DNA of 64,000 nt from a virus (taxonomy: Duplodnaviria > Heunggongvirae > Uroviricota > Caudoviricetes > Straboviridae), in IMG/VR virus record IMGVR_UViG_638277085_000001, positions 99,399 through 163,398 of that record; one strand, written 5' to 3'. Below the pieces are notes generated by a model that was not told the origin of the DNA, ran no database searches, and was given only the letters and a program-made list of their open reading frames with translations. Position numbers and translations under genes: made by a program. Shown piece after piece: positions 31,820-55,215 of the stretch. How positions within the stretch are numbered: the first letter of the stretch is position 1; the number at the start of each line of letters is the position of its first letter.

Positions 31820-31825
31820 TTTCCG

Positions 31826-31856
31826 ATGCGGGTTGTTACGACATCCCGCATAAATA
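31826..31856 (+). promoter_or_regulatory. UACG hairpin overlapping a T4-type late promoter (ATAAATA)
   Basis: ATGCGGGTTGT-TACG-ACATCCCGCAT; ATAAATA 31850-31856 about 33 nt before the ATG. Confidence 0.6.
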
Positions 31857-31888
31857 GTTCTATATGGACTAACAAGGAAATTACGACA

Positions 31889-32419
31889 ATGCCAACTCCT
31901 ACAACAGGTGCGATTTCAATCGGTACCGTTCGTGATTATTTCAGTAGAACCGGCGCTGCTTCATTGTCTCAGTACTACAGAGGCGGCGGTATTGTTCCTG
32001 ATATTACTGAAAATGCTCACGTACCAACTTCAGGCGCGATTAGCTTGAATGACTTGCGCGGTGTATATCGCTTGTCAACGTATACGACATCATTTACGAC
32101 AACATACAACACCACTGTATCAACATCGAATACGACTTCGCGTAGTACATCAAGAAGTACAACTAGAAGTACTGCATACAGTACAACTCGCTCGACTGCG
32201 TATACTACTAGTTGGACAACTAGCCGAACTACGTCGGTGACTAAAGGTTCGTATTCGACATCATACACGACTTCTCGTGCTACATCACGTTCAACATCAT
32301 ATAGCACGACACGTTCAACAGCTTATACGTCTACGTGGACAACATCATGGACAACCACGTACAACACAACAGTATCAACATCAAACACAACTTCGCGAAG
32401 CACGCAAGTTGCAGTTTAA
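31889..32419 (+). CDS. Ser/Thr tetrapeptide-repeat protein with adhesin-like N-terminal head (putative modified virion needle or RiPP-like precursor)
   Basis: AAGGA RBS; 63 aa head with two PT(T/S)GAIS motifs, then 14 tetrapeptides + G + 14 tetrapeptides. Confidence 0.85.
   Translation: MPTPTTGAISIGTVRDYFSRTGAASLSQYYRGGGIVPDITENAHVPTSGAISLNDLRGVYRLSTYTTSFTTTYNTTVSTSNTTSRSTSRSTTRSTAYSTTRSTAYTTSWTTSRTTSVTKGSYSTSYTTSRATSRSTSYSTTRSTAYTSTWTTSWTTTYNTTVSTSNTTSRSTQVAV
32078..32416 (+). repeat. protein-level 12-nt periodic repeat
   Basis: Units mostly [STA]-[RYWFVN]-[STN]-T; TTTYNTTVSTSNTTSRST occurs twice with different synonymous codons. Confidence 0.9.
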
Positions 32420-32431
32420 CAGGGTTAAATT

Positions 32432-32650
32432 ATGAGCTACAATGAAGAACACGAGAACCGAATCAACGAGCTTGAGAACAAGGTTTCAAAGCTTGAGTCG
32501 ATAATTGAAAATCTGGTCGAGTCAATGACTTCGAACAGCGAAGCTATTATCGAACATATTGCATCACTTGAGACCGAGAGGGATTCGATTCTTGCATCAT
32601 ATGATGACAAACTTAATGAGATCGTGACCAAATATGAACCCAAGCAATAG
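32432..32650 (+). CDS. small acidic coiled-coil protein
   Basis: Heptad pattern RINELENKVSKLESIIENL. Confidence 0.75.
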   Translation: MSYNEEHENRINELENKVSKLESIIENLVESMTSNSEAIIEHIASLETERDSILASYDDKLNEIVTKYEPKQ

Positions 32651-32654
32651 AGAA

Positions 32655-33488
32655 ATGACTGGGTTCAATAACATTTCTCGCACCGGTAAGTTGAAATTAC
32701 AATCCGATGCAGACAACGTCCGTGCCATGTGTATGGACGTTGTTCGTTTATTGAACTCTAAAAATATACCATCTAACTTCGACATCAATCACAATGACGG
32801 TGGTAACATCGGCGTGCATGAATGGGTGTCACAAATCCGCTTCATTCACTTGAAATACATGAACGTTAATTTCCAAACGAAGATTTTCAAGCATGCCTAT
32901 CATAACACTGAAAACGTCGTTGACTATTTTGACACGTTCAAACATTCTGACAAATATCATCTATCAGCGAAGCCTAGATTTTTAGAATATGAAAACGTCG
33001 TATTTCTATGTGGATCGAATGTACTTGAATTGGCAATTGACTTTGACAAGATTGATACGCTGGTCGAACATTATCCCGATTTAGTGATCAAACCACACCC
33101 GATTACGACGCTGTATTACATCAATATGCTTAAAACTCGATATGGATCGAAGCGCGTGCTTTCTCAGAAGATCAGCGGTGTTGATGTTCTTAAATCTGCT
33201 AAACGTGTTTGGCTACCTTCAACGTCTGAGTTCTGGTTTAGTGCCTTGAACTACGACAAAGAAATCGGGTTTATCTCTAAAGATGGTTTCTGTGGAACGT
33301 ACACGTCAATCATCAACGCAGTATGGGAATTGCATGAAGAAACCGGTGATCCATTGAAAGATATTGTGAATAAAATTATCTCGTCACCTTACTCAGGTCT
33401 GTATGGTAGTATGGCAGACTTTGAAGAGCATCACGAGAAATACTGTAATGTGATTCTAGAACTAGGGGGTAATTTCGATAATGTATGA
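32655..33488 (+). CDS. GT-B glycosyltransferase-like protein (KpsS/KpsC or sialyltransferase-like HP motif)
   Basis: LVIKPHP motif followed by DVLKSAKRV...SEFWF..ALNYDKEI. Confidence 0.6.
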   Translation: MTGFNNISRTGKLKLQSDADNVRAMCMDVVRLLNSKNIPSNFDINHNDGGNIGVHEWVSQIRFIHLKYMNVNFQTKIFKHAYHNTENVVDYFDTFKHSDKYHLSAKPRFLEYENVVFLCGSNVLELAIDFDKIDTLVEHYPDLVIKPHPITTLYYINMLKTRYGSKRVLSQKISGVDVLKSAKRVWLPSTSEFWFSALNYDKEIGFISKDGFCGTYTSIINAVWELHEETGDPLKDIVNKIISSPYSGLYGSMADFEEHHEKYCNVILELGGNFDNV

Positions 33489-34113
33489 TTATGTAATTCA
33501 CACTTCGATTAGTGACAAAAGTCAGCTAAACCAACTAGTGATGTTTGTCGGGTCTTTCATCGAGACGCACAAAAAAGGTCGCGTGGTCTGCGTGACTGAT
33601 CTTGAACTTGATTTCACGATGCCTCGACTGTCATTTGAGAAAAAACTACCCGAAGAGTACGTTTTCATTTCAGTTGACAATCTATTTTTACAAAAAACAT
33701 ACGGCGTTGTTAGCTACATTGACAGTGGTACTTGGCGATGTACTTGGCAAAAGAATGATCATGATGATTTCGTCATTAAAAAGCATGGCGAAAGAAGCGG
33801 GTTGATTCACCCTGATATTGCAATTGCAAATTACAATGTTTCGAGACATGGCGATCTCGACATGTATTACAACGCGCTTCGTTACATTGAGAGCGCAATC
33901 ACGATCAACTGCAAAGACTTTGCCCCTGCTGCTGAGAATAAAATCAACAGCTTTTACACGCTTGTATTTCCATGGGAGATTTATTTTCACGTTATGATCA
34001 CTTACCAAGAGTATATTGATTCTGAATACGTTGAGCGAGTTCGCGCTAACTGTCATAAGTTCGCACACTCGGTTTATTACAGAAAATCAGGGTTGTTACG
34101 TGATGGGTTATGA
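33481..34113 (+). CDS. putative GT-A-like glycosyltransferase / tailoring enzyme
   Basis: N-terminal beta-alpha-beta (YVIHTS...RVVCVTD) and FISVDNLFL resembling a DxD region; weak. Confidence 0.4.
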   Translation: MYDYVIHTSISDKSQLNQLVMFVGSFIETHKKGRVVCVTDLELDFTMPRLSFEKKLPEEYVFISVDNLFLQKTYGVVSYIDSGTWRCTWQKNDHDDFVIKKHGERSGLIHPDIAIANYNVSRHGDLDMYYNALRYIESAITINCKDFAPAAENKINSFYTLVFPWEIYFHVMITYQEYIDSEYVERVRANCHKFAHSVYYRKSGLLRDGL

Positions 34114-34786
34114 TGAGATAATTTTAGTATCTGGTCTTGATAGTTTAGTTCTATATGAATTTCTTGAACGAAAGCCACACCCTGTTTACTTTAAATGGGG
34201 TTTTGCTATCGACGACATTGAAATGGCTGCTTTGCCTGAAGAAACAACTATCATAGAAATGCCAGAGATTTTGCATTTGAAACATGATCCGTATGAGTTC
34301 AAGACACCAAGAAATCCCGATTTAATTGGTCGGAATACGTTGATGTTTAACTCAGTTTTCCATGCATTCAGACCAAACGTAATTTATCGCGGGATGTTGA
34401 AAGGTGATGATTTCTATTACGACGCATCGCCTACGCATTCAGATGAAATCGCAGCTATGTGGTCGAAAATGCTGAATAAAGAGTGTCGAATTGAACAACC
34501 GTTCAAAGACAAAACGAAACGTGACATAATGCAAATGGCGGTCGAATACGGTATTGATGCGAATTCATTACAGCATTGTTACAATCGAGAACACAACTGC
34601 GGTCGATGTAGCAAGTGTGTGGATGCACATGTTAATTCTATGTACACCGACAACCCAGACATCATGTGGCTGAAACGAATAGTTAATGACTCGGGTATGG
34701 CATCATTGGCTAATCACATGTTTGGTGTTGATACAGTTGACAGAATAAAGGAATTTCTAGATGAATTTGATCGAACAGACTGCTGA
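34103..34786 (+). CDS. QueC-like PP-loop ATPase
   Basis: ILVSGLDS PP-loop, QPF...TKRDI, C-terminal CY-x5-CGRCSKC zinc site. Confidence 0.75.
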   Translation: MGYDEIILVSGLDSLVLYEFLERKPHPVYFKWGFAIDDIEMAALPEETTIIEMPEILHLKHDPYEFKTPRNPDLIGRNTLMFNSVFHAFRPNVIYRGMLKGDDFYYDASPTHSDEIAAMWSKMLNKECRIEQPFKDKTKRDIMQMAVEYGIDANSLQHCYNREHNCGRCSKCVDAHVNSMYTDNPDIMWLKRIVNDSGMASLANHMFGVDTVDRIKEFLDEFDRTDC

Positions 34787-35654
34787 TAAATTCGAGCATA
34801 GTTACCGAGAAGACGTTCAAGGCGTACAGTGGTATTTCGGTAGTCGAACGCATGATTTTTATCTGTATGGAATAGACTCTCTTATTGATAAAGTCAAAGA
34901 CTGTGATTTTATTGAAATCAAGCATGTTCAAGAGGGTACGCTGGTTAAACGAGGCGAAGCTGCGGTCACGGTTACGATTACAGATCATAGTCGTATCGCA
35001 TATGGGAACATGATTGAAACATTGTTGTACAATGAGTTGTGGTATTCGAGCACGGTCGGTACGATTTTACACCGTTGTCTTGATGTGTTGCATGAAAACG
35101 GCTATGACGCTCGTTCAGCATACCCTCAAATCGGACGGGCGAGTTCAACGCCAGAACAGTCAGCTAAAGCAAGGGATGTGTTCGCACGTATATTTTATCA
35201 ATCGTCGAATGAGAAAATACCCGTTGCGATGCACAGTGATATTTTAATCAACGGTGAGGAATATTGCATGGAACATTATAACGGCATCATGATTGATACT
35301 TTCGATAAGCAAGCTTGCATTGACTTGATCAACAAGAAAGACTTTCGAGGGACTGTGATGGTTGACTCTCAGCCAATAATTGAAACAATTGAGAGAGTTC
35401 TAGCTGAAACAAAATGCTTTGTTGCACAAGCTGAAAGTGTTACACTCGATGAGTGGATAGAGATAGTGCGACATTTTAAAGGCAATAAGCGAATTTTCTA
35501 CGGGATTGGTAGCTTTGCATTTAGCAATATATCACGAGACACATTTGGTTTGATTTACAAAGTGTGTGCAGTTAAGAAAAACGACAACTGGATCGGAGTT
35601 TCAAAGATGACGACAGGTAAACAAACATCGGCTGGTTATAAGGTTATAGGTTAG
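34761..35654 (+). CDS. degenerate NAMPT/NAPRTase-like type II phosphoribosyltransferase
   Basis: WYSSTV, MHS, IDTFD, VDS, YGIGS, RDTFGLIYKV, K.TTGKQTSAG parallel the NadV motifs. Confidence 0.7.
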   Translation: MNLIEQTADKFEHSYREDVQGVQWYFGSRTHDFYLYGIDSLIDKVKDCDFIEIKHVQEGTLVKRGEAAVTVTITDHSRIAYGNMIETLLYNELWYSSTVGTILHRCLDVLHENGYDARSAYPQIGRASSTPEQSAKARDVFARIFYQSSNEKIPVAMHSDILINGEEYCMEHYNGIMIDTFDKQACIDLINKKDFRGTVMVDSQPIIETIERVLAETKCFVAQAESVTLDEWIEIVRHFKGNKRIFYGIGSFAFSNISRDTFGLIYKVCAVKKNDNWIGVSKMTTGKQTSAGYKVIG

Positions 35655-35656
35655 TT

Positions 35657-36646
35657 ATGAATTATTGTATAGCGCCGTTTACATCGCCGTCTATTACACC
35701 AGACGGTTTTAAAATTTGCAGCATGCCAGGTCAGAAAGTATACCCTGATATTTCATTCTGGAATAGTGATGAAGTGATCAAGATTCGCGAACAGATTATC
35801 GCTGGTGAAATTCCTGAATCGTGCAAGGCATGTCGTAGTATGCGTGACGGGTTGATTGTGTCAAAAGAAAAACCAACTGATACTCATGTTGACTTGAATT
35901 TCAAAGCTCTTTACATTGCGCGGTCGAACAAGTGTGAATATGCTTGTGAAATGTGCAGTTCATCAATCTCACATAGCTATGACAAGAAATACAATGACGG
36001 TAAGTTGGGGATTATTGAGAATGACTTTGATGTTATTCCGTATCTGCACGAAACACAAGCCGTTGCTATTTCGGGCGGGAACCCTGTCATTGACAAAAAG
36101 GTTGCAGAGATTCTTGAGAATCTAGACCCTGACGTGGTAGAACGTTTCATTATTACTTCAAATGGGACAGTCTTTCCAGACAGATTCTTGAATGCAATTA
36201 AGAGATTGAAATGTGACGCGACTTTGATATTCTCTATGGACGGACCGAAAGAGTTTAATGAAGTGGTTCGATCTGGTGCGAAGCAAGAGAGAATCTATCG
36301 CACCATTAATCGAGTTCTTGACGAGATTGAAGATTACCCAAACTTGCATGTGGCAATTGAGTATACTTTCACGAATAAGTCAATTCATCACTACGTTGAT
36401 TTGTATGATGAAATGCTCTTCGAGATCAACCCGAAGCATTTGAAAAACAACTCAGTTAAAGTGATTGCGAATATGTGTACATACCCGCATCACCTTAGCG
36501 TTACAACTGTTCCCAAAACCGTCATTGATGACATATTGTTCAATCAGTTGCCGTATTTGAGACAGCAACCCAGCCCATTGTCAAATCAATTCAAACTTGG
36601 CTATGATAAGTTTTTGACTCAGTATCACAACAGCGTGATTATGTGA
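35657..36646 (+). CDS. radical SAM enzyme with N-terminal twitch-like Cys cluster
   Basis: CEYACEMC (CxxxCxxC), ISGGNP, TSNGT, SMDG; N-terminal C..PF...C...C..C. Confidence 0.9.
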   Translation: MNYCIAPFTSPSITPDGFKICSMPGQKVYPDISFWNSDEVIKIREQIIAGEIPESCKACRSMRDGLIVSKEKPTDTHVDLNFKALYIARSNKCEYACEMCSSSISHSYDKKYNDGKLGIIENDFDVIPYLHETQAVAISGGNPVIDKKVAEILENLDPDVVERFIITSNGTVFPDRFLNAIKRLKCDATLIFSMDGPKEFNEVVRSGAKQERIYRTINRVLDEIEDYPNLHVAIEYTFTNKSIHHYVDLYDEMLFEINPKHLKNNSVKVIANMCTYPHHLSVTTVPKTVIDDILFNQLPYLRQQPSPLSNQFKLGYDKFLTQYHNSVIM

Positions 36647-37763
36647 TCAGATCATACGCTTTGATATGTGAGTAAAACTCTGGACACGCAGACGATAAAT
36701 TAGTTTTCGTCTTCGTGTCTATTCTTTTGTTAAGAACAAAGAATTCAGGGTTGAATTTACAAACACTGTGTTCCAGAGTAAGACATTCAGCAACGTGCTT
36801 AAATGGTCTAGCCAAATCCTCACGCCCATCTTTTAAATACGCTTCTTCTTTCACTTTGAATCTTGATAATAGCTGGTCTCGAAATGCAACTGGAATGTTG
36901 TAAATTGAGTATGGATTATCAGGCTCACCGACGACATGCACAGACAAACGTACACGTTTACCATCATAAAGCGAATCAAAATCTGAAACCAATGTTTCAA
37001 GATGTTCAAGAGTCACGTTTGACACGGTCGCAGTGATAACTACATCAAAGTGTTGCTTGATGACTTCAATGTTTGATTTGACTTTTTTGATGTCTGCAAA
37101 CAATCGAATATAATCTTGGTATTCTCGTAGACCGTCGATTGATACGAACACCGTTGATGCATTAGCTTCTTTAAGCGATTTGATGAGATCTGAGCCATCG
37201 GCTAACACTAGTGATGAGCCATTCGTGAAAATATTCACTGCGGCTTTAATGTCGCCTACGTTGCGAAGAACTTCAGGAGCATTTGACGAGCGGGTAATTT
37301 CACCGCCTAGAATTGTCAATGACGAAAGTCCTTTGCTGATTGTGTTGATTGTCGTACTCAAATCATTGAATCGAGTACTTGAATCTTCTTCATTGAACAA
37401 TCTAGCCTTCAAGTCTGATAATTTGCTGTAGCAGTAACGACAAGCTTGATTACATTCATTACTAGGGAATACTTGTAGCCAGCGAACTGAATCAGCGGGC
37501 ATAATAGGTGAAACTTCAGAATCGTGTTCTGTTAGACGCTGTGGGTCATTATCAGTAATGCACATTTGACATGCCTTTGACAGCTTGCTCATGTCGTGGT
37601 TTAGCATTGCTTCACGATAAGCGACAAGCTTTTCATCATTCCAAGCGTCTGCTAGTGTTTTTTCATCAGTAAACCATTCATAATCAGCCGAACAGCAAAA
37701 CGTAATTTGATTGTTTGCTCGTGTGATGAACTGCTTGAACGGCATATAACATAGTGGTTTCAT
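36639..37763 (-). CDS. radical SAM enzyme with N-terminal twitch-like Cys cluster
   Basis: CNQACRYC, LGGE, FTNGS, SIDG; N-terminal CYMPF...CC...CQMC. Confidence 0.9.
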   Translation of the reverse strand: MKPLCYMPFKQFITRANNQITFCCSADYEWFTDEKTLADAWNDEKLVAYREAMLNHDMSKLSKACQMCITDNDPQRLTEHDSEVSPIMPADSVRWLQVFPSNECNQACRYCYSKLSDLKARLFNEEDSSTRFNDLSTTINTISKGLSSLTILGGEITRSSNAPEVLRNVGDIKAAVNIFTNGSSLVLADGSDLIKSLKEANASTVFVSIDGLREYQDYIRLFADIKKVKSNIEVIKQHFDVVITATVSNVTLEHLETLVSDFDSLYDGKRVRLSVHVVGEPDNPYSIYNIPVAFRDQLLSRFKVKEEAYLKDGREDLARPFKHVAECLTLEHSVCKFNPEFFVLNKRIDTKTKTNLSSACPEFYSHIKAYDLIT

Positions 37764-37773
37764 GTTTCTGTCC

Positions 37774-38346
37774 TTAGTTAAAAATGCTACTTGTATATAT
37801 AGCAGTCTTCAGGGCATTGAAATGATCGTCAACTCTATTCACGTGTATGCATTCAATGTCAAATCTTTCTTGGATTTCTCGGATGTTGTCTAGCGAGTCG
37901 TCGATGAAGTATTTCACCTCATGCAGTTCACACAGCTTCTCGACATACTTTGCCTTCGAGTCGAAGTACTCAATCGAAATCACCTCACTTATCATCCCTG
38001 GGAATAACGCATTTAGATTATACACGCGATTTGACCATGAAGTTCTACTCATGCTGAACTTGGTTAGTGCAATGATGTTATATCGGTCTGAGAGTTCGCG
38101 TAACGCATCGTAAGCGTCTTCATATGCGGGTATGTACTTTGCACACTCATGTTCATTGTATGCGCCTATAAGCTTTCCTAGTTGCATGTCACTCACGTTA
38201 ATAAATAAAGAGCGTGCATCGGTATCAGTATTTGAACCGTTGATATTCAAATTATCAAGCATGCCTAATTGCATCATGAAGAATGGCAAGTTGGCTTTCC
38301 AGTTAAGCAAAACCCCGTCTACATCTATGATGATCGTCTTTTTCAT
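37774..38346 (-). CDS. HAD-family phosphatase (5'(3')-nucleotidase / T4 30.2-like)
   Basis: IIIDVDGVLL motif I, ALT motif II, FIDD motif IV. Confidence 0.8.
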   Translation of the reverse strand: MKKTIIIDVDGVLLNWKANLPFFMMQLGMLDNLNINGSNTDTDARSLFINVSDMQLGKLIGAYNEHECAKYIPAYEDAYDALRELSDRYNIIALTKFSMSRTSWSNRVYNLNALFPGMISEVISIEYFDSKAKYVEKLCELHEVKYFIDDSLDNIREIQERFDIECIHVNRVDDHFNALKTAIYTSSIFN

Positions 38347-38386
38347 TACTACCTCGAAAAAAATTAAAATTTTTCGAAAAAAAGTA

Positions 38387-38415
38387 TTGACACTTAGTTT
38401 CGTTCATGTAATACT
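38387..38415 (+). promoter_or_regulatory. sigma70 promoter
   Basis: A-tracts, TTGACA 38387, TAATACT near 38409. Confidence 0.6.
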
Positions 38416-38479
38416 TATCTCAACTTAACGAAACAAGTTAAACAAACAAGACAACATTTAATCAAAAAAGGAAATACAC

Positions 38480-38716
38480 ATGAAAAACTTCAAATCAATC
38501 GCAACTGCACTTCTTCTAACTATGACTTTCTCTGCTGGTGCTTTCGCACACGGCTCAGGCGGTACGCTAGGTGGTAACCTTGGCATCGAAATGTGCAAAA
38601 TCGGAGCAATCAACTGCGGCTTCCCTAAACAAGAAGTTAAAGTTGAAAAAGAAGCACCAAAAGCTGAAAAGGCTGAGGTGAAAGAAGTTAAGCTGGCAAC
38701 TGATCTGACAGCTTAA
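38480..38716 (+). CDS. small secreted/periplasmic protein
   Basis: Signal peptide ending AGAFA; CKIGAINC; Lys/Glu tail. Confidence 0.75.
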   Translation: MKNFKSIATALLLTMTFSAGAFAHGSGGTLGGNLGIEMCKIGAINCGFPKQEVKVEKEAPKAEKAEVKEVKLATDLTA

Positions 38717-38720
38717 TTGA

Positions 38721-38746
38721 AATGTGCAGATTCGTCTGCACATTTT
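38721..38746 (+). terminator. hairpin terminator
   Basis: AATGTGCAGA-TTCG-TCTGCACATT-TT. Confidence 0.75.
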
Positions 38747-38815
38747 GTTTAATAACGACTCATCGAGACATATACTAAAGTCTCACACAATCAAGCATAA
38801 AATGGGAGCCATACA

Positions 38816-40309
38816 ATGCTAAATCTTAATCAAAATATCGCAATCGCAACTGACAGCTACAAAGTTTCACACTGGTCTCAATTCCCTCGTGGTCTAGAGT
38901 ACAGCCAATATTACGTCGAAAGCCGGGGTGGTAAGTTCGACAAAATTATGGTCGATGGTATGGCATACATGTGTCGTATTCTCGAAAAAGGTGTTTCGAT
39001 GAACGATGTCAAGCGTGCGAAACGTCTGTTCAAAAAGCACTTCGGTTCTGAAGTCTTCAATGACAAGGGTTGGGACATCATCGTTAACGAACTGAAAGGC
39101 AAACTGCCTATTAAGATTCGTGCGGTCAAAGAAGGTACTGTAGTACCAGTTAAACACCCTATCTTGACGATTGAGAACACAGATCCGCGTTTTGGTTGGC
39201 TGCCTGGCTATCTTGAAACGTTCATCTTGCGTGCTCTTTGGTACCCGACAACTGTAGCAACGATCTCGTTCGAAGTGAAGAAAATCATTCGCCAATTCAT
39301 GAAGAAGACGGTTGATGATGAACGCATTGCAGAACAAGAGCCGTTCAAACTTCACGACTTTGGTTCTCGTGGTGTATCAAGTGGCGAATCTGCGGCTATC
39401 GGCGGCTCTGCTCACTTGAAAAACTTCTTGGGTACTGACACTGTAGAAGCACTTGTTGCAGTTGAAGAACTTTACGCTGAAGATGTTGAAGACTTCATTG
39501 CAGGATTCTCAATCCCTGCACGTGAACACTCAACAACTACAATCTACAAAGAAGCTGGTGAAGACCAAGCATTCTTGAACTCTATTGAGCAATGGGGTGC
39601 TGCATTATACGCTTGTGTAATGGACAGCTACGACTACGAAGCAGCAATGAATCGTGTCTCGACTGGTCGCTTCAAAGAGCTAATCATCAGCAAAGGCGGT
39701 ACGTTTGTTGCTCGTCCTGACTCTGGTGTGCCTGTAGATGTAGTAATGAAAGGTCTTGAGATTCTTGGTAAAAACGTTGGTTATACAATCAACAGCAAGG
39801 GTTACAAAGTATTGCACCCTAGCTACCGTATCATTCAAGGTGACGGCGTGAACATCGAAGAAATTCGTCGAATCTTGTCTTACATGGAAAGTAAAGGCTG
39901 GTCGGCAGAAAATATTGCATTCGGTATGGGTGGCGGGTTGCTTCAACAACTTGACCGTGATACTCAACGCTTTGCAATGAAAATGTCAGCGGCAATCATC
40001 AACGGCGAATACGTTAGCGTGTTCAAAATGCCGAAGACTGATCCGACAAAAGCATCAAAAGCAGGTTTCTTGGATTTGATTGCAGTTGATGCAGACAATC
40101 CGAACCCAGCGGCTCGTGGTTACGTGACGTTCTCTTCTGAAGATTACGACAATCGCGTACACCCGAAAAGCGTGATGCAGACAATCTTCGAAGACGGTGT
40201 AACAGTTGCCGACTTCTCACTAGAAGAAGCGCGTAAACTGTCTGACGTACAAGCTGATTTCCTGAACGAAGGTGAATGGAAAATCGCGAAAAAGATTCAA
40301 ACTGCGTAA
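38816..40309 (+). CDS. nadV: nicotinamide phosphoribosyltransferase
   Basis: TDSYKVSH, WYPTTVAT, LHDFGSRG, PAREHS, RPDSG, IQGDG, FGMGGGLLQ, RDT. Confidence 0.96.
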   Translation: MLNLNQNIAIATDSYKVSHWSQFPRGLEYSQYYVESRGGKFDKIMVDGMAYMCRILEKGVSMNDVKRAKRLFKKHFGSEVFNDKGWDIIVNELKGKLPIKIRAVKEGTVVPVKHPILTIENTDPRFGWLPGYLETFILRALWYPTTVATISFEVKKIIRQFMKKTVDDERIAEQEPFKLHDFGSRGVSSGESAAIGGSAHLKNFLGTDTVEALVAVEELYAEDVEDFIAGFSIPAREHSTTTIYKEAGEDQAFLNSIEQWGAALYACVMDSYDYEAAMNRVSTGRFKELIISKGGTFVARPDSGVPVDVVMKGLEILGKNVGYTINSKGYKVLHPSYRIIQGDGVNIEEIRRILSYMESKGWSAENIAFGMGGGLLQQLDRDTQRFAMKMSAAIINGEYVSVFKMPKTDPTKASKAGFLDLIAVDADNPNPAARGYVTFSSEDYDNRVHPKSVMQTIFEDGVTVADFSLEEARKLSDVQADFLNEGEWKIAKKIQTA

Positions 40310-44045: not shown

Positions 44046-45098
44046 TCATTTCACCATTTTGATTTGAATCTGATTGTCCATGTAAGCCATTTTCTTTTCA
44101 AATTCAACATCATATTCTGGTCGATGTTCGTATTCGACTGAAAGCATTTGCTTCAGACAACGGTACAATTCCGACTTGTAATACCCTTCTTTCATTCCCT
44201 TCATCTGTTCATATTGCTTTTTCATAGCAGCTTTGATTATCTTCGGGTCCATGAATTTGATTGACATTTCTCGCGGTGCTTTTACTGTGCCAAAGTCAAC
44301 AAACACCTGAGCCTTTTCAGCTACTTGAATGAAGTCATAAATCGTGTCATAACTCATTCGACTTAGCGTGTGGTGCATACAAACATGTTTGCTATGTTCT
44401 TTTAGCAACGGTACATTTGCAAGCATCAAGTCGTGGTCGATGTTCTGACGAATGTATTCGTTGCGCTCTTTTCCGCCGTCACATGAAATTGTAAACACTA
44501 GACGATGTTTGTACTTTTTACATATGGCTAGAATCTTCTTCGCAAGTGGCGTATGCAACACAGTACCATTTGTCAGAATGTAAACTTCCGCATTTGTTTC
44601 TTCCATGACTTCAGTCAGAACTTCGACTGTTCTCTTGTCCATGAACGGTTCGCCGCCGTATAGCACAACAGTTTCAACACCCTTCGGGATACTGAAATCG
44701 AGTTGTGTGTAATCGTAATGGTCGTCAATGTCATACAAGTCCATGTATGTTTTGCTATTCTTGCCATAGCACATTCGACACGCTAGGTTACATTTGTTTG
44801 ACATCAATATTTGAATTGTTCTAGGATGCTCTTCGAGTGCTTCATATTCGAAGTACTTCTGATCAGACAATTCGCCATAACTCATACATTCTTTGCAGTA
44901 TTCTGGTAAAGTGTCATACTCAAACATTTTGGCACGATGTTCATTGATGATGTCACTGTGCCACCAGTCTTCAACGTTCGGGAATGGTTCACTTAGCTGA
45001 GAACAGCAAATGTGATACCCATCAGGTTTTGCGTCACGTGTATTAAAGGGAGAGCCACAAAGTGGTCTCTTCCCGTCTTTAAATCCGAATTTATCCAT
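44046..45098 (-). CDS. radical SAM enzyme with N-terminal twitch-like Cys cluster
   Basis: CNLACRMC, YGGEPF, LTNGT, SCDG; N-terminal CGSPF...CC...CKEC. Confidence 0.9.
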   Translation of the reverse strand: MDKFGFKDGKRPLCGSPFNTRDAKPDGYHICCSQLSEPFPNVEDWWHSDIINEHRAKMFEYDTLPEYCKECMSYGELSDQKYFEYEALEEHPRTIQILMSNKCNLACRMCYGKNSKTYMDLYDIDDHYDYTQLDFSIPKGVETVVLYGGEPFMDKRTVEVLTEVMEETNAEVYILTNGTVLHTPLAKKILAICKKYKHRLVFTISCDGGKERNEYIRQNIDHDLMLANVPLLKEHSKHVCMHHTLSRMSYDTIYDFIQVAEKAQVFVDFGTVKAPREMSIKFMDPKIIKAAMKKQYEQMKGMKEGYYKSELYRCLKQMLSVEYEHRPEYDVEFEKKMAYMDNQIQIKMVK

Positions 45099-45370
45099 TA
45101 ATCTAGCTCATCAAGAAGTGATTGAAATTCCTCGTCGCGTTCAGCGTCGATTGTACCAGTCATCAACTCTGTTAGAGTCTTCAACGACTTGATCTCTGGT
45201 GGTTGAGGGCGTAGATCTTCGAGAATGTGAATGATTGACTCGGCTGGGAGATCGTGATTTACGATCTCATCTGGCAGGTGGTGTTTGTAAACGCAGTCGT
45301 CGCCCCAATCAATAACTACTGCATGTTCCCATTTGTCGATTTCTAGTATTTTAAAATTTGGTTTCATCAT
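45098..45370 (-). CDS. small acidic hypothetical protein
   Basis: Coupled to both neighbours; MKPNFKILEID start. Confidence 0.6.
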   Translation of the reverse strand: MMKPNFKILEIDKWEHAVVIDWGDDCVYKHHLPDEIVNHDLPAESIIHILEDLRPQPPEIKSLKTLTELMTGTIDAERDEEFQSLLDELD

Positions 45371-46368
45371 AAGCCCCAGAGTTCTTTCCAATGTGTTTTA
45401 GCATCTTGTCGATACTTCTCAATGTCAAATTTTTGATATTTCTGTTCGATTGCATCATCAATGACGCGAATCAACGTATCATTGTTTATATCAGCACGAA
45501 TCACTGGGAAAATAAAATCCCTTGTGTAAGGTGCGTCATGCTGAACAATACAAGGTATGTACTGACATGCTTCTAATAACGCATATGGCATAATCTCGAT
45601 TCTAGACATATGAAGCAAAACTTTACTTTTCATCATATGTGCCATGACTCGCTCACGCCGCTGACAAGTTTCGACTATACAATCAACACCATTCGGGATT
45701 CTTATTGATTCGGTTGTGAATAGACGAATTTTAAGACCGCTGTATGCAAGCGCGTTTAGCATTTCGGGTATCTGCTTACGTTTGTATGCACCTGACACGA
45801 TAATCACGTCAGACTCTTCAGCAGCGTCAATATCAGCTTGTGATATGGACGGAAGCTCAAAAGGTTCAAATGCAGTCACATGTTTGCCACCGATTACTTC
45901 TCGACCCCATTGTGCAATCCCGTTCGATTGAGCAATGTTAGTGACTAATGACGTTGACATCATGTGTCGCCATTGAGGTAAGTTGTAAATTTGATGAATG
46001 TCCATGTATTCGCGATATGAATCTGGTACTATCAAGTCACCGAAATGATGTTGGTTGTAACAACGGCGCTTCGCTTCGATACATGCGCGGAGTGCTTCAT
46101 ATGAATGCGTATAGATAATCGCTTCGCTATCAATCGCGTTGATAACCATTGCGTTTGCCTTGTAGTCTTTATAAGACCGTTTCGTTAAAATGAAGTCACA
46201 CCCGAAATCCCATTTACTCACGTGCGGACACGATTCGTCTCCGAGTACAATAACTTTGACATCACAGTTTAGTGATTGCATTAAACGAACGTGATCTTGA
46301 ATGAATGTGTAAATACCGCCGCCAATTCCCAACATAAAGTCAGTTACTACGTAGCGAACTTTTTTCAT
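45367..46368 (-). CDS. GT4-like (GT-B retaining) glycosyltransferase
   Basis: N-terminal GGG and SKVLLHMSRIEIMPYALLEAC...PCIV (E-x7-E motif). Confidence 0.75.
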   Translation of the reverse strand: MKKVRYVVTDFMLGIGGGIYTFIQDHVRLMQSLNCDVKVIVLGDESCPHVSKWDFGCDFILTKRSYKDYKANAMVINAIDSEAIIYTHSYEALRACIEAKRRCYNQHHFGDLIVPDSYREYMDIHQIYNLPQWRHMMSTSLVTNIAQSNGIAQWGREVIGGKHVTAFEPFELPSISQADIDAAEESDVIIVSGAYKRKQIPEMLNALAYSGLKIRLFTTESIRIPNGVDCIVETCQRRERVMAHMMKSKVLLHMSRIEIMPYALLEACQYIPCIVQHDAPYTRDFIFPVIRADINNDTLIRVIDDAIEQKYQKFDIEKYRQDAKTHWKELWGL

Positions 46369-54333: not shown

Positions 54334-55215
54334 ATGCAGGTAAGATGGACAGAAATGTTTTACAGCATTCAAGGCGAAGGGAAATACACTGGTCAAGCTA
54401 GTTTGTTCTTTCGCTTCTGGGGTTGTAACTTAGAATGTCACGGCTTCGGGCAAGAAGATCCGACGAATAAAGATACATGGGTATTAGACTTCAAAGACTA
54501 CGACCCGAAAGCGAACAACGTGACTTCAGTCGAAGATCTGCCTGTATGGACTCGTGGATGTGACTCTTCTTACACGTGGGCTAAAAAGTATGCTCATCTT
54601 GCTTCAAAGTCTGAAGTCGCAGATGTATGCGAAGCAATGCTTGAGAAACTGCCTAATCGAGTTTGGGGAGATATTCATTGGGTAATTACAGGTGGTGAGC
54701 CGATGATGAATCAAGCTCAAATCATCGAAATGATGAATTACTTCATCAAAATTGACAATTATCCAAAACATGTCACGATTGAAACTAATGGTACGCGAGA
54801 ACTCAAGCCAGAATTTGCAGAGCGTTGGGCGCTAATTCAGTGGAATACGCATCGTAATGTTCACTTGAGTTTCAGCGTGTCGGCTAAGTTGTACAACGTA
54901 ACTGGCGAAGTGCATGAAAAAGCAATCAAGCCAAAAGTTGTCAACCAGTATGCACGCATCGGAGAAGTCTGGCTAAAGCCAGTCGTCGTAGACAAGGAAG
55001 CGTGTTGGGACGAGCTTGATATTGTGATCGCACAGTTCAAAGCAGAACGCAACTTACACAACGTTCCGGTGTATATCATGCCATGTGGCGCTACTCAAGA
55101 AGAGCAAGAGCAAGATGGTTATATGGCGTCAATCGCAGGGAAAGCATTGGCGCGTGGTTACAACGTTTCTGTACGAACTCACGTATGGATTTGGGGTAAC
55201 GCGGTGGGCACGTAA
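54334..55215 (+). CDS. queE: 7-carboxy-7-deazaguanine synthase (radical SAM)
   Basis: EMFYSIQGEG, GCNLECHGF...GCDS, ITGGEP, IETNGT, SVSAK, RTHVWIWGN. Confidence 0.85.
   Translation: MQVRWTEMFYSIQGEGKYTGQASLFFRFWGCNLECHGFGQEDPTNKDTWVLDFKDYDPKANNVTSVEDLPVWTRGCDSSYTWAKKYAHLASKSEVADVCEAMLEKLPNRVWGDIHWVITGGEPMMNQAQIIEMMNYFIKIDNYPKHVTIETNGTRELKPEFAERWALIQWNTHRNVHLSFSVSAKLYNVTGEVHEKAIKPKVVNQYARIGEVWLKPVVVDKEACWDELDIVIAQFKAERNLHNVPVYIMPCGATQEEQEQDGYMASIAGKALARGYNVSVRTHVWIWGNAVGT

Follow-up and report, generated by a model that had tools for sequence, protein, structure and literature searches.

A Ser/Thr-repeat fibre-type protein and its paired glycosyltransferase-like gene in a candidate protein-tailoring cluster of KVP40-type vibriophages

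The gene cluster and its Ser/Thr-repeat protein

We analysed a nine-gene cluster (31889-38346) in a 64,000-nucleotide (nt) stretch of a Straboviridae genome, hereafter the window (IMG/VR record IMGVR_UViG_638277085_000001, positions 99,399 to 163,398). Its first gene encodes a small protein rich in serine and threonine and its third gene a glycosyltransferase-like protein of the GT-B fold (hereafter GT-B), and the recurrent pairing of these two genes in phages is the main finding reported here. Over this 6.6-kb region the window is 96-99% identical to Vibrio phages of the species Schizotequatrovirus KVP40 (VH1_2019, PVA8, phi-pp2 and others), an identity by which it is assigned to the KVP40-type T4-like vibriophages. 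The features are as follows.

31849-31856 (+): T4-late-type promoter-like motif CATAAATA, 33 nt 5' of the ATG of the Ser/Thr gene
31889-32419 (+): Ser/Thr-repeat fibre-type protein, 176 amino acids (aa); PHROG 30374
32432-32650 (+): coiled-coil protein, 72 aa; PHROG 5851, with Pfam matches of coiled-coil-type noise only
32634-33488 (+): HP-motif GT-B glycosyltransferase-like protein, 284 aa; fold of retaining beta-Kdo transferases (Kdo, 3-deoxy-D-manno-oct-2-ulosonic acid)
33481-34113 (+): protein of no recognised family, possibly with a GT8/HPAT-like nucleotide-sugar-transferase-like fold, 210 aa; PHROG 30897
34103-34786 (+): QueC-family PP-loop ATPase of a rare fibre-associated subfamily, 227 aa; PF06508, 37 bits
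34761-35654 (+): trimmed NAMPT-fold (type II phosphoribosyltransferase-like) protein, 297 aa; PF04095, 28.5 bits
35657-36646 (+): radical SAM enzyme A, 329 aa, with an N-terminal Cys-rich twitch-type domain; PF04055, PHROG 14086
36639-37763 (-): radical SAM enzyme B, 374 aa, a paralogue of A and convergent with it; PF04055, PHROG 14086
37774-38346 (-): HAD-type phosphatase-like protein, 190 aa, related to T4 gp30.2; PHROG 420 (E 1e-38), weak PF00702

Every open reading frame (ORF) named in a preliminary description of the cluster, made from the letters alone, was found in place and as tightly packed as it had stated: the first two genes are 12 nt apart, the next four junctions overlap by 17, 8, 11 and 26 nt, and after these come a gap of 2 nt, a convergent overlap of 8 nt and a gap of 10 nt, and the second radical SAM gene and the HAD gene do converge from the opposite strand.

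Among the 86 window ORFs of at least 100 aa, only the 176-aa product of the first gene has a Ser+Thr fraction of 0.38 or more. Serine and threonine make up 50% of the whole protein, 21% of its head (residues 1-62) and 66% of its tail (residues 63-176; 114 residues). The tail contains 10 Arg/Lys and no Asp/Glu, its non-Ser/Thr residues are most commonly spaced by 4, and Arg, Tyr or Trp stands at about every fourth residue in x-T-T-S-type repeats; the head has two copies of a P-T-S/T-G-x-I-S motif flanking SQYYRGGG. In the DNA of the gene there are only two 12-nt units with 1.9-2.4 copies and no recent tandem repeat, indicating that the repeat pattern is maintained at the protein level. AlphaFold2 (AF2) modelled the small head with moderate confidence (predicted local distance difference test, pLDDT, 72-85) and rendered the tail as long hairpins, which we judged untrustworthy (pLDDT 25-39). 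The idea that this ORF is not a gene was rejected, as conservation of its frame, head and repeat style reaches from 50% down to unrelated N-termini and one relative has an intein-like insert. The label “cell wall mannoprotein” carried by some records is a composition artefact of automatic annotation.

Outside close relatives, tblastn matches of the Ser/Thr protein cover the head only. In Xanthomonas phage RTH11 the head opens a 156-aa protein encoded directly after a 6.6-kb tail-fibre gene, and in Stenotrophomonas phage DLP_6 a head protein comes after a fibre gene and one small gene; both have an ordinary non-repeat tail. Scanning IMG/VR with the head alignment, we got 36 loci, mostly encoding 315-380-aa proteins with glycine-rich motifs, and most of these proteins follow a large fibre gene and a small gene. 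Head-bearing proteins match PHROG 2056/11439 (“tail fiber protein; host specificity”), and those from IMG/VR match the KVP40-family PHROG 30374 through the head. The first gene had been taken to encode a late protein of fibre or adhesin type, and the head which it shares with PHROG 2056/11439 proteins encoded right after fibre genes bears this out; judged from these alignments, it is a fibre-type protein with a swappable tail.

The tail-fibre-tip adhesins of the T2/S16 gp38 type are small proteins whose gene comes after that of the distal fibre; an N-terminal module attaches them, and a repeat-rich part faces the receptor. The KVP40-type Ser/Thr protein is similar in being small and in joining an N-terminal attachment-type head to a repeat-rich part, and the glycine-rich motifs of its head relatives resemble gp38. 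It differs in that it gave no sequence or fold match to gp38, that its gene does not adjoin a fibre gene, and that a Ser/Thr repeat takes the place of the glycine-rich sandwich.

The GT-B transferase and its pairing with Ser/Thr-rich genes

The third product had been described as a KpsS/sialyltransferase-like HP-motif GT-B, which its fold confirms, with KpsC and WbbB as the nearest structures. With an AF2 model built on a 22-sequence alignment (pLDDT 85), an exhaustive VIA fold search gave KpsC 6mgb (Z 9.8 over 220 residues), WbbB 5fa0 (Z 9.2) and KpsC 6mgd (Z 8.9) as the best matches, the next unrelated rows being at Z <= 7 and sialyltransferases ranking below the beta-Kdo transferases. Foldseek found WbbB at E 7e-5, with WbbB and KpsC together ranging from 7e-5 to 1e-3; the Atlas model of GT-B reaches a template modelling score (TM) of 0.57 to a KpsS cluster, the family being spread over many clusters that are viral throughout. 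In the 22 sequences K153, H155, P156 and E199 are invariant, and the HP motif, which binds the CMP phosphate in the beta-Kdo transferases, and the SE motif vary little or not at all. In a profile-to-PDB comparison, whose overall E is only 0.36, K153-x-H155-P156 and S198-E199 align with the VHP and SS..G..LGKEV motifs of KpsC 6mgb. On the 5' side of HP there are a nearly invariant D106, an invariant K107-Y108 and G127-x-N129. GT-B thus resembles KpsC/KpsS (GT107) and WbbB (GT99) in fold and in the alignment of the HP and C-terminal S-S/E...G...K motifs, and it is shorter than they are (284 aa). The GT52 model (PF07922) matches residues 83-163 only, at 19.5 bits, below its gathering threshold of 26.1. 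As modelled, GT-B is probably an HP-motif, cytidine monophosphate (CMP)-sugar-type glycosyltransferase-like protein.

The family is essentially viral, since a back-translated VIKPHPIT pattern hit 23 stretches in bacterial genomes, of which only two are true GT-B homologues. Word-index homologue searches for GT-B and for radical SAM B returned near-identical phage proteins only, and our literature search turned up nothing on Kdo-type transferases or on Thr-rich partners in phage fibres. By tblastn, GT-B was found in the 28 Ser/Thr-tail Vibrio phages and, at the end of the fibre module, in Caulobacter phages; an IMG/VR scan gave 27 further loci with 25-33% identity.

To describe the neighbourhood of GT-B, we took 31 GT-B loci from IMG/VR and isolates (about 20 lineages), considering ORFs of at least 100 aa and a Ser+Thr threshold of 0.38. 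In nearly all of them a Ser/Thr-rich ORF precedes GT-B, either as its next neighbour or one small gene away. Among 491 ORFs, all Ser/Thr-rich ones (18 of 18) are located in this position 5' of GT-B and none elsewhere (Fisher p = 7e-19). These upstream ORFs have 38-62% Ser/Thr and 148-984 aa, with T/S runs interrupted by R, K, N, Y, W or F, and five lineages that stay under the threshold (27-32% Ser/Thr) have the same repeat style. Their N-termini fall into four or more unrelated types, among them the KVP40 head (L039, L041, L043), which indicates that GT-B tracks the repeat and not one protein family. The neighbours 5' of the pairs are tail-fibre proteins: a collagen-like fibre, a central fibre J and a T7-type fibre N-terminus. 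The pairing is also present in Caulobacter phages Lullwater and Cr30, and again in a contig of a Dongiaceae metagenome-assembled genome that holds one of the two bacterial homologues. The Ser/Thr-rich protein of this contig (1030 aa; L103:2212-5304) has an intein-like insert with a Cys start and a His-Asn end and with repeats on both sides.

For the converse control, we looked at the 36 IMG/VR head loci with glycine-rich or other tails: none had a transferase in a profile search, and none had a Ser/Thr-rich tail. Neither was found in RTH11, DLP_6, VH7D and nt-1, in which the head carries another tail. The transferase of an O-glycosylation system is expected to travel with Ser/Thr-rich stretches, and GT-B does so (18/18 against 0/36). 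The co-occurrence and synteny check proposed in the preliminary description therefore came out in favour of a functional tie between the Ser/Thr protein and the HP-motif transferase. As co-occurrence evidence for an acceptor-enzyme pair this is about as strong as such evidence gets, and on these gene neighbourhoods we consider it likely that the Ser/Thr protein and GT-B are such a pair.

Alternatively, GT-B could act on the host envelope, i.e. on lipopolysaccharide (LPS) core, capsule or a lipid acceptor like KpsC/KpsS, and so alter the surface of the infected cell, and the Ser/Thr protein could be a separate, unglycosylated structural or surface protein. The known KpsC, KpsS and WbbB enzymes do act on lipid or glycan acceptors and not on proteins, the nearest GT-B folds all using glycolipids, and at the site of the cluster the genes of sister phages include PagP, LpxC-like, GT8 and RfaF-like ones, which points to envelope remodelling. 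However, this explanation leaves unaccounted for that GT-B is found only beside Ser/Thr-rich ORFs in about 20 lineages, small podophages included, and never beside the same head with other tails, and we regard it as improbable.

In every Vibrio-type copy of the cluster the 72-aa coiled-coil gene separates the Ser/Thr gene from the transferase gene, and it has homologues in two metagenomic phages (contigs L083 and L091); its product may be a folding helper. The place it holds in Vibrio phages is occupied in ten loci by another family (L020, L022, L023, L025-L028, L033, L040, L042), whose small proteins (158-201 aa) match neither Pfam nor PHROG and which lies between the Ser/Thr-rich gene and the transferase, or after the transferase in L027. 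The genes just 3' of GT-B in other phages have no detectable homology to the 210-aa protein of the window or to each other, and no PHROG or Pfam match.

The remaining enzymes of the cluster

GT-B, the 210-aa protein, the QueC-like protein and the NAMPT-fold protein were found together by tblastn in every Vibrio phage with the Ser/Thr tail (28 of 28), and in none of 14 records of the same phage group that have another gene at the site was any of these four found. By tblastn against 50,697 phage records, the 210-aa, QueC-like and NAMPT-fold proteins are confined to those 28 Vibrio phages. For the radical SAM and HAD genes, the annotated representatives were read. None of the 27 IMG/VR GT-B loci carries the cluster's other enzymes, and one of them has a radical SAM gene 6 kb off.

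The cluster recurs with other flanks in two metagenomic phages, as the synteny expected of a unit would have it. Contig L083 carries the head with a 367-aa Ser/Thr protein, the coiled coil, GT-B, a homologue of the 210-aa protein, the NAMPT-fold protein and HAD, and here the QueC-like protein is fused to radical SAM A (P0014; 61% identity), a fusion which ties radical SAM A to the QueC-like and NAMPT-fold proteins. In L091, the radical SAM genes are relocated upstream. The QueC-like and NAMPT-fold genes were also found as a pair behind fibre genes in two unrelated phages: in the SU10-like podophage L086 they lie directly after the gene of a 670-aa tail-fibre protein (35% identity each), with no other cluster gene, and in the siphophage L088 after two S74 fibres and a 266-aa adhesin with the head motifs and a glycine-rich tail. 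From these positions the two genes appear as a second unit that recurs beside fibre genes. A radical SAM enzyme beside a QueC-type ATPase recalls QueE-QueC, a likeness we mention as an analogy and not as evidence.

The QueC-like protein passes the PF06508 cut-off (22 bits) and belongs to the QueC family, in line with the ATPase predicted earlier. Canonical QueC, the preQ0 synthase, has an SGGxDS loop and the motifs YxQxHxxE, VPxRN and YPDC (PMC13329287). In the six members of the phage subfamily, the invariant positions are SG[LIF]DS, a PP-loop one residue shorter than SGGxDS, GR, P133, K139 and a C-x6-C-x2-C-x2-C zinc site (C159, C166, C169 and C172). The protein keeps the GR(N) and P-F...K motifs; of the canonical substrate motifs only the RN part is retained, and those binding 7-carboxy-7-deazaguanine are lost: KVP40 has YYDA in place of YPDC, 6E35.1a does not conserve this motif, and Y-x-Q is absent. 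The TIGR00364 score is 28.7 against a cut-off of 150. Its sole sequence match in the PDB is Cap9 (9nto_B, E 1e-5). Among 1.84 billion representatives, searched exhaustively, phmmer gave only 5 relatives below 1e-10, and an IMG/VR pattern scan with the QueC-like alignment found nothing. By these searches, the protein is a member of a very rare QueC subfamily tied to phage fibres.

Some records annotate these genes as queC and queE, and KVP40-type phages do modify their DNA with 7-deazaguanines (PMC12028318; PMC8056088), so the QueC-like and radical SAM proteins might be taken for spare parts of that pathway. A complete canonical set is located elsewhere, with FolE, QueD and QueC at 69.7-74.3 kb of the genome, QueE at about 154 kb and DpdA2/QueF listed as KVP40.0122-0123, and the cluster paralogue is thus not needed for DNA modification. 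It also has the shortened loop and lacks the Y-x-Q and YPDC motifs, and it is the weaker matches, beyond E 1e-9, that adjoin GTP cyclohydrolase and represent ordinary deazaguanine-pathway QueC. We rejected the cluster enzymes as the phage's deazaguanine genes, and their being spare parts of the pathway is very improbable. Of this set, the genes at 69.7-74.3 kb lie outside the window and QueE falls at about 54565-54879 of it; the Pfam TGT model misses the published DpdA2.

Two QueC-family proteins, Cap9 and QatC, join a carboxylated base to protein N-termini (bioRxiv 10.1101/2025.04.06.647259; PMC13329287); in type IV CBASS, Cap9 ligates 7-carboxy-7-deazaguanine onto a protein N-terminus (bioRxiv 10.1101/2025.04.06.647259). 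The phage protein is like Cap9 in being short, in keeping the RN, PF..K and zinc motifs, and in being paired with a protein of nucleobase-transferase fold, as Cap9 is with the TGT-like Cap10. Unlike Cap9 and QatC, it has the shorter PP-loop and does not conserve the Y/F-x-Q and Y-x-D-C substrate motifs; its partner has a NAMPT fold instead of a TGT fold, and it belongs to a phage fibre module instead of a bacterial defence system. No CD-NTase or Cap10-like domain was found among the cluster proteins, and PF01702 (TGT) has no match in the genome.

The degenerate NAMPT-like protein reported earlier does have a NAMPT fold, with the N-terminal domain lost and the sequence diverged. It passes the PF04095 cut-off (20.8 bits), and its Atlas model has TM 0.90 to NAMPT clusters. 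NAMPT_N has no match in it, it is 200 aa shorter than NadV, and BLAST aligns it with the phage's own NadV in two short stretches only (24-33% identity).

The 210-aa protein, confined to phages with the full cluster, had been called GT-A-like. In favour of this there are Atlas matches of TM 0.45-0.51 to GT8/HPAT clusters, obtained from a poor model (pLDDT 0.44); it has no Pfam or NCBIfam match, and no conserved DxD was found. By this modelling, it is possibly a second transferase.

Both radical SAM enzymes are confirmed as such, with PF04055 and the CxxxCxxC core. Their best model is NF033640, of the N-terminal twitch type, on which A scores 118.6 bits, B 127.9 and a third paralogue in the window (44046-45098) 131.4, all under the cut-off of 170. 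On the curated peptide-maturase models, they score far under every cut-off. The layout had been likened to pathways for ribosomally synthesised and post-translationally modified peptides; this analogy is not supported, as the substrate would be a 176-aa protein with a folded fibre-type head, the maturase models are far below their cut-offs and the N-terminal domain is of the twitch type. Radical SAM B is present in the KVP40-type and 6E35-type clusters, and no clear orthologue of it was found in L083 or L091. The HAD call holds through PHROG 420, and the gene is kept at the cluster edge on the opposite strand in 6E35.1a, L083 (50% identity) and L091 (52%). The third paralogue (350 aa) is encoded together with 97-aa and 333-aa proteins at 44046-46368 (-) of the window, and the same three-gene unit is present in nt-1 (ORF138-140), which does not have the Ser/Thr cluster.

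The cluster is located in a cassette-swap site between a PHROG 13539 gene and nadV, where the cargo varies among KVP40 relatives (window 31820-38800; L017-L019). VH7D-type phages have PagP here together with a head-motif protein whose 125-aa tail is a different one, nt-1 has a head-motif protein with an FG-GAP propeller, and K566/K567 have a lipoprotein, 3-4 radical SAM paralogues, GT8, PagP and an LpxC-like gene. In K566/K567 the replacement of the island goes with a receptor switch from OmpK to LamB (PMC12028318). In phi-pp2 and QD01 there is an additional gene of about 1.15 kb between a 78-aa signal-peptide gene and nadV (L001:12958-14100; L002:10920-12095), annotated in QD01 as an RfaF-like ADP-heptose:LPS heptosyltransferase; the window has about 100 nt there (38716-38816).

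Such a site could also hold two unrelated units, that is, a real pair of Ser/Thr protein and GT-B beside enzymes which have nothing to do with the fibre protein and make or alter a nicotinamide adenine dinucleotide (NAD)-related or nucleotide-like small molecule for counter-defence or host takeover. The very different cargo of sister phages fits this, as do the distance of 0.5 kb from the NAD-salvage gene nadV, the weak matches of viperin and QueE models to the radical SAM proteins, and the presence of the GT-B family in about 18 lineages without the remaining enzymes; moreover, the QueC-like gene has been tagged CBASS-QueC-like and the radical SAM gene viperin-like (PMC12028318). These published labels, however, are automatic annotation and not tests. 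The QueC-like and NAMPT-fold genes lie inside structural or fibre modules of two unrelated lytic-type phages, and the pair stays with the Ser/Thr gene in five lineages despite differing flanks or order. A NAMPT-fold protein which has no N-terminal domain and aligns with NadV in short stretches only, and a cluster with no CD-NTase or Cap10-like partner among its proteins, also argue against this explanation, which we consider unlikely, if clearly the best of the alternatives.

A candidate decorated fibre protein

From gene content, folds, motifs, co-occurrence and gene fusion we infer the following route as the best explanation. The first gene would give a small, late-made, tail-fibre-associated virion protein, whose conserved 62-residue head would anchor it to a fibre, as in the related adhesin-type proteins. 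The basic tail of tetrapeptide-like Ser/Thr repeats would serve as the O-glycosylation acceptor, and the adjoining GT-B would put Kdo or a related CMP-activated ulosonic acid, supplied by the host, onto the Ser/Thr hydroxyls. Kdo would be the likeliest sugar because every Gram-negative host makes CMP-Kdo. We know of no O-linked Kdo on a protein, and such a linkage would be new. This two-gene unit of acceptor and transferase would be widespread in phages, and in KVP40-type phages it would be joined by a second fibre-associated set, with the QueC-family ATPase as a carboxylate-activating enzyme and a radical SAM enzyme, together with the NAMPT-fold protein, the HAD phosphatase, the 210-aa possible second transferase and the second radical SAM paralogue. 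The second set would add or elaborate a further group on the fibre protein or its glycan.

As a whole, this explanation of a glycosylated fibre protein with a second tailoring set seems to us somewhat more probable than all the others together. That the entire Vibrio-phage cluster tailors the same protein is put forward more tentatively, with a probability a little under even, because the genes form a cassette block, fibre-proximal sites collect accessory genes and radical SAM paralogues exist without any Ser/Thr protein. More speculative, and rather unlikely at present, is the idea that the QueC-like, radical SAM and NAMPT-fold proteins build a carboxylated heterocycle, pyridine- or nucleobase-like, which is amide-ligated to the fibre protein or its Kdo-type glycan. 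Such a reaction would amount to Cap9/QatC conjugation in a viral form, tuning adsorption instead of immunity, atop the first CMP-ulosonic-acid O-glycosylation of a phage fibre.

Several points weigh against the glycosylated-fibre explanation. For the transferase, the QxxxKD motif with the Asp nucleophile of KpsC/WbbB is not recognisable in the 22 GT-B sequences, which have G127-x-N129 and D106-K107-Y108 instead, so that mechanism and donor could differ. Capsule_synth (PF05159) gave no GT-B match at E <= 0.1 and no other Kdo-transferase Pfam model matches, so GT-B was filed as fold-related only and not as a member of the Kdo-transferase family. For the cluster, the genes form one syntenic block in the cassette-swap site, and their joint loss may reflect physical linkage only. 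Accessory genes are known to accumulate 3' of fibre genes. N-twitch radical SAM paralogues without any Ser/Thr protein are present in the window (the third paralogue), in nt-1 and in the K566 island, where they accompany GT8, PagP and LpxC-like genes, and this hints at envelope or small-molecule chemistry. In an ISME J paper on 6E35.1a-type phages the stretch has been labelled an ancestral “anti-defense island”, by annotation alone (PMC12028318). Finally, gene callers can miss the Ser/Thr gene: the 6E35.1a re-annotation behind the published virion proteome splits or misses it, with 36-, 29- and 127-aa ORFs instead (L009:9001-9534). It was hence missing from the mass-spectrometry search database with which its product could have been detected, and the proteome, listed here among the opposing points, speaks neither way.

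The preliminary description had proposed that the phage decorates an exposed adhesin after translation, by a kind of pathway not known to be characterised in T4-like phages. The fibre-type protein, the transferase pairing and the recurring cluster, all from comparative genomics, lend the proposed decoration partial support. The claim of novelty needs trimming, as O-glycosylation of virions has already been established in mycobacteriophages: Freeman et al. are said to have described it in 2023 for Che8, Corndog and Myrna. There, too, phage glycosyltransferases adjoin virion proteins with Ser/Thr-rich acceptor stretches, and the donor presumably comes from the host. The mycobacteriophage acceptors are C-terminal extensions of capsid or tail-tube subunits in phages of Actinobacteria, in contrast to a separate, small fibre-type putative acceptor made almost wholly of repeats, an HP-motif, Kdo-transferase-like GT-B and Gram-negative hosts in the present case.

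If the glycosylated-fibre explanation is right, many phages of Gram-negative bacteria would carry a dedicated, heavily glycosylated fibre protein, made by a two-gene unit from the host's LPS-precursor pool, and virion glycosylation would reach well past mycobacteriophages. GT-B would represent a new protein-directed branch of the Kdo/sialyl-transferase fold group. The explanation would also provide a testable handle on how broad-host-range vibriophages such as KVP40 meet cell surfaces, mucus and capsule, and the second set would be a lead to a protein-modification chemistry related to the recently found deazaguanylation.

The late-type promoter claimed for the Ser/Thr gene stands in part. The count of CATAAATA in the window (2 seen, 2.9 expected) is not significant, and significance by count was rejected; the evidence for a promoter is therefore positional conservation, as a TAAATA-type motif is found at the same position 5' of the orthologous gene in five lineages (QD01, phi-pp2, 6E35.1a, VH7D and nt-1). 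In VH7D the motif at that position is a perfect TATAAATA. After the upstream gene there is a hairpin (31826-31853) with a 7-bp stem (ATGCGGG / CCCGCAT) and a 12-nt loop, whose 3' arm overlaps CATAAATA, and QD01 keeps the same hairpin with a changed loop.

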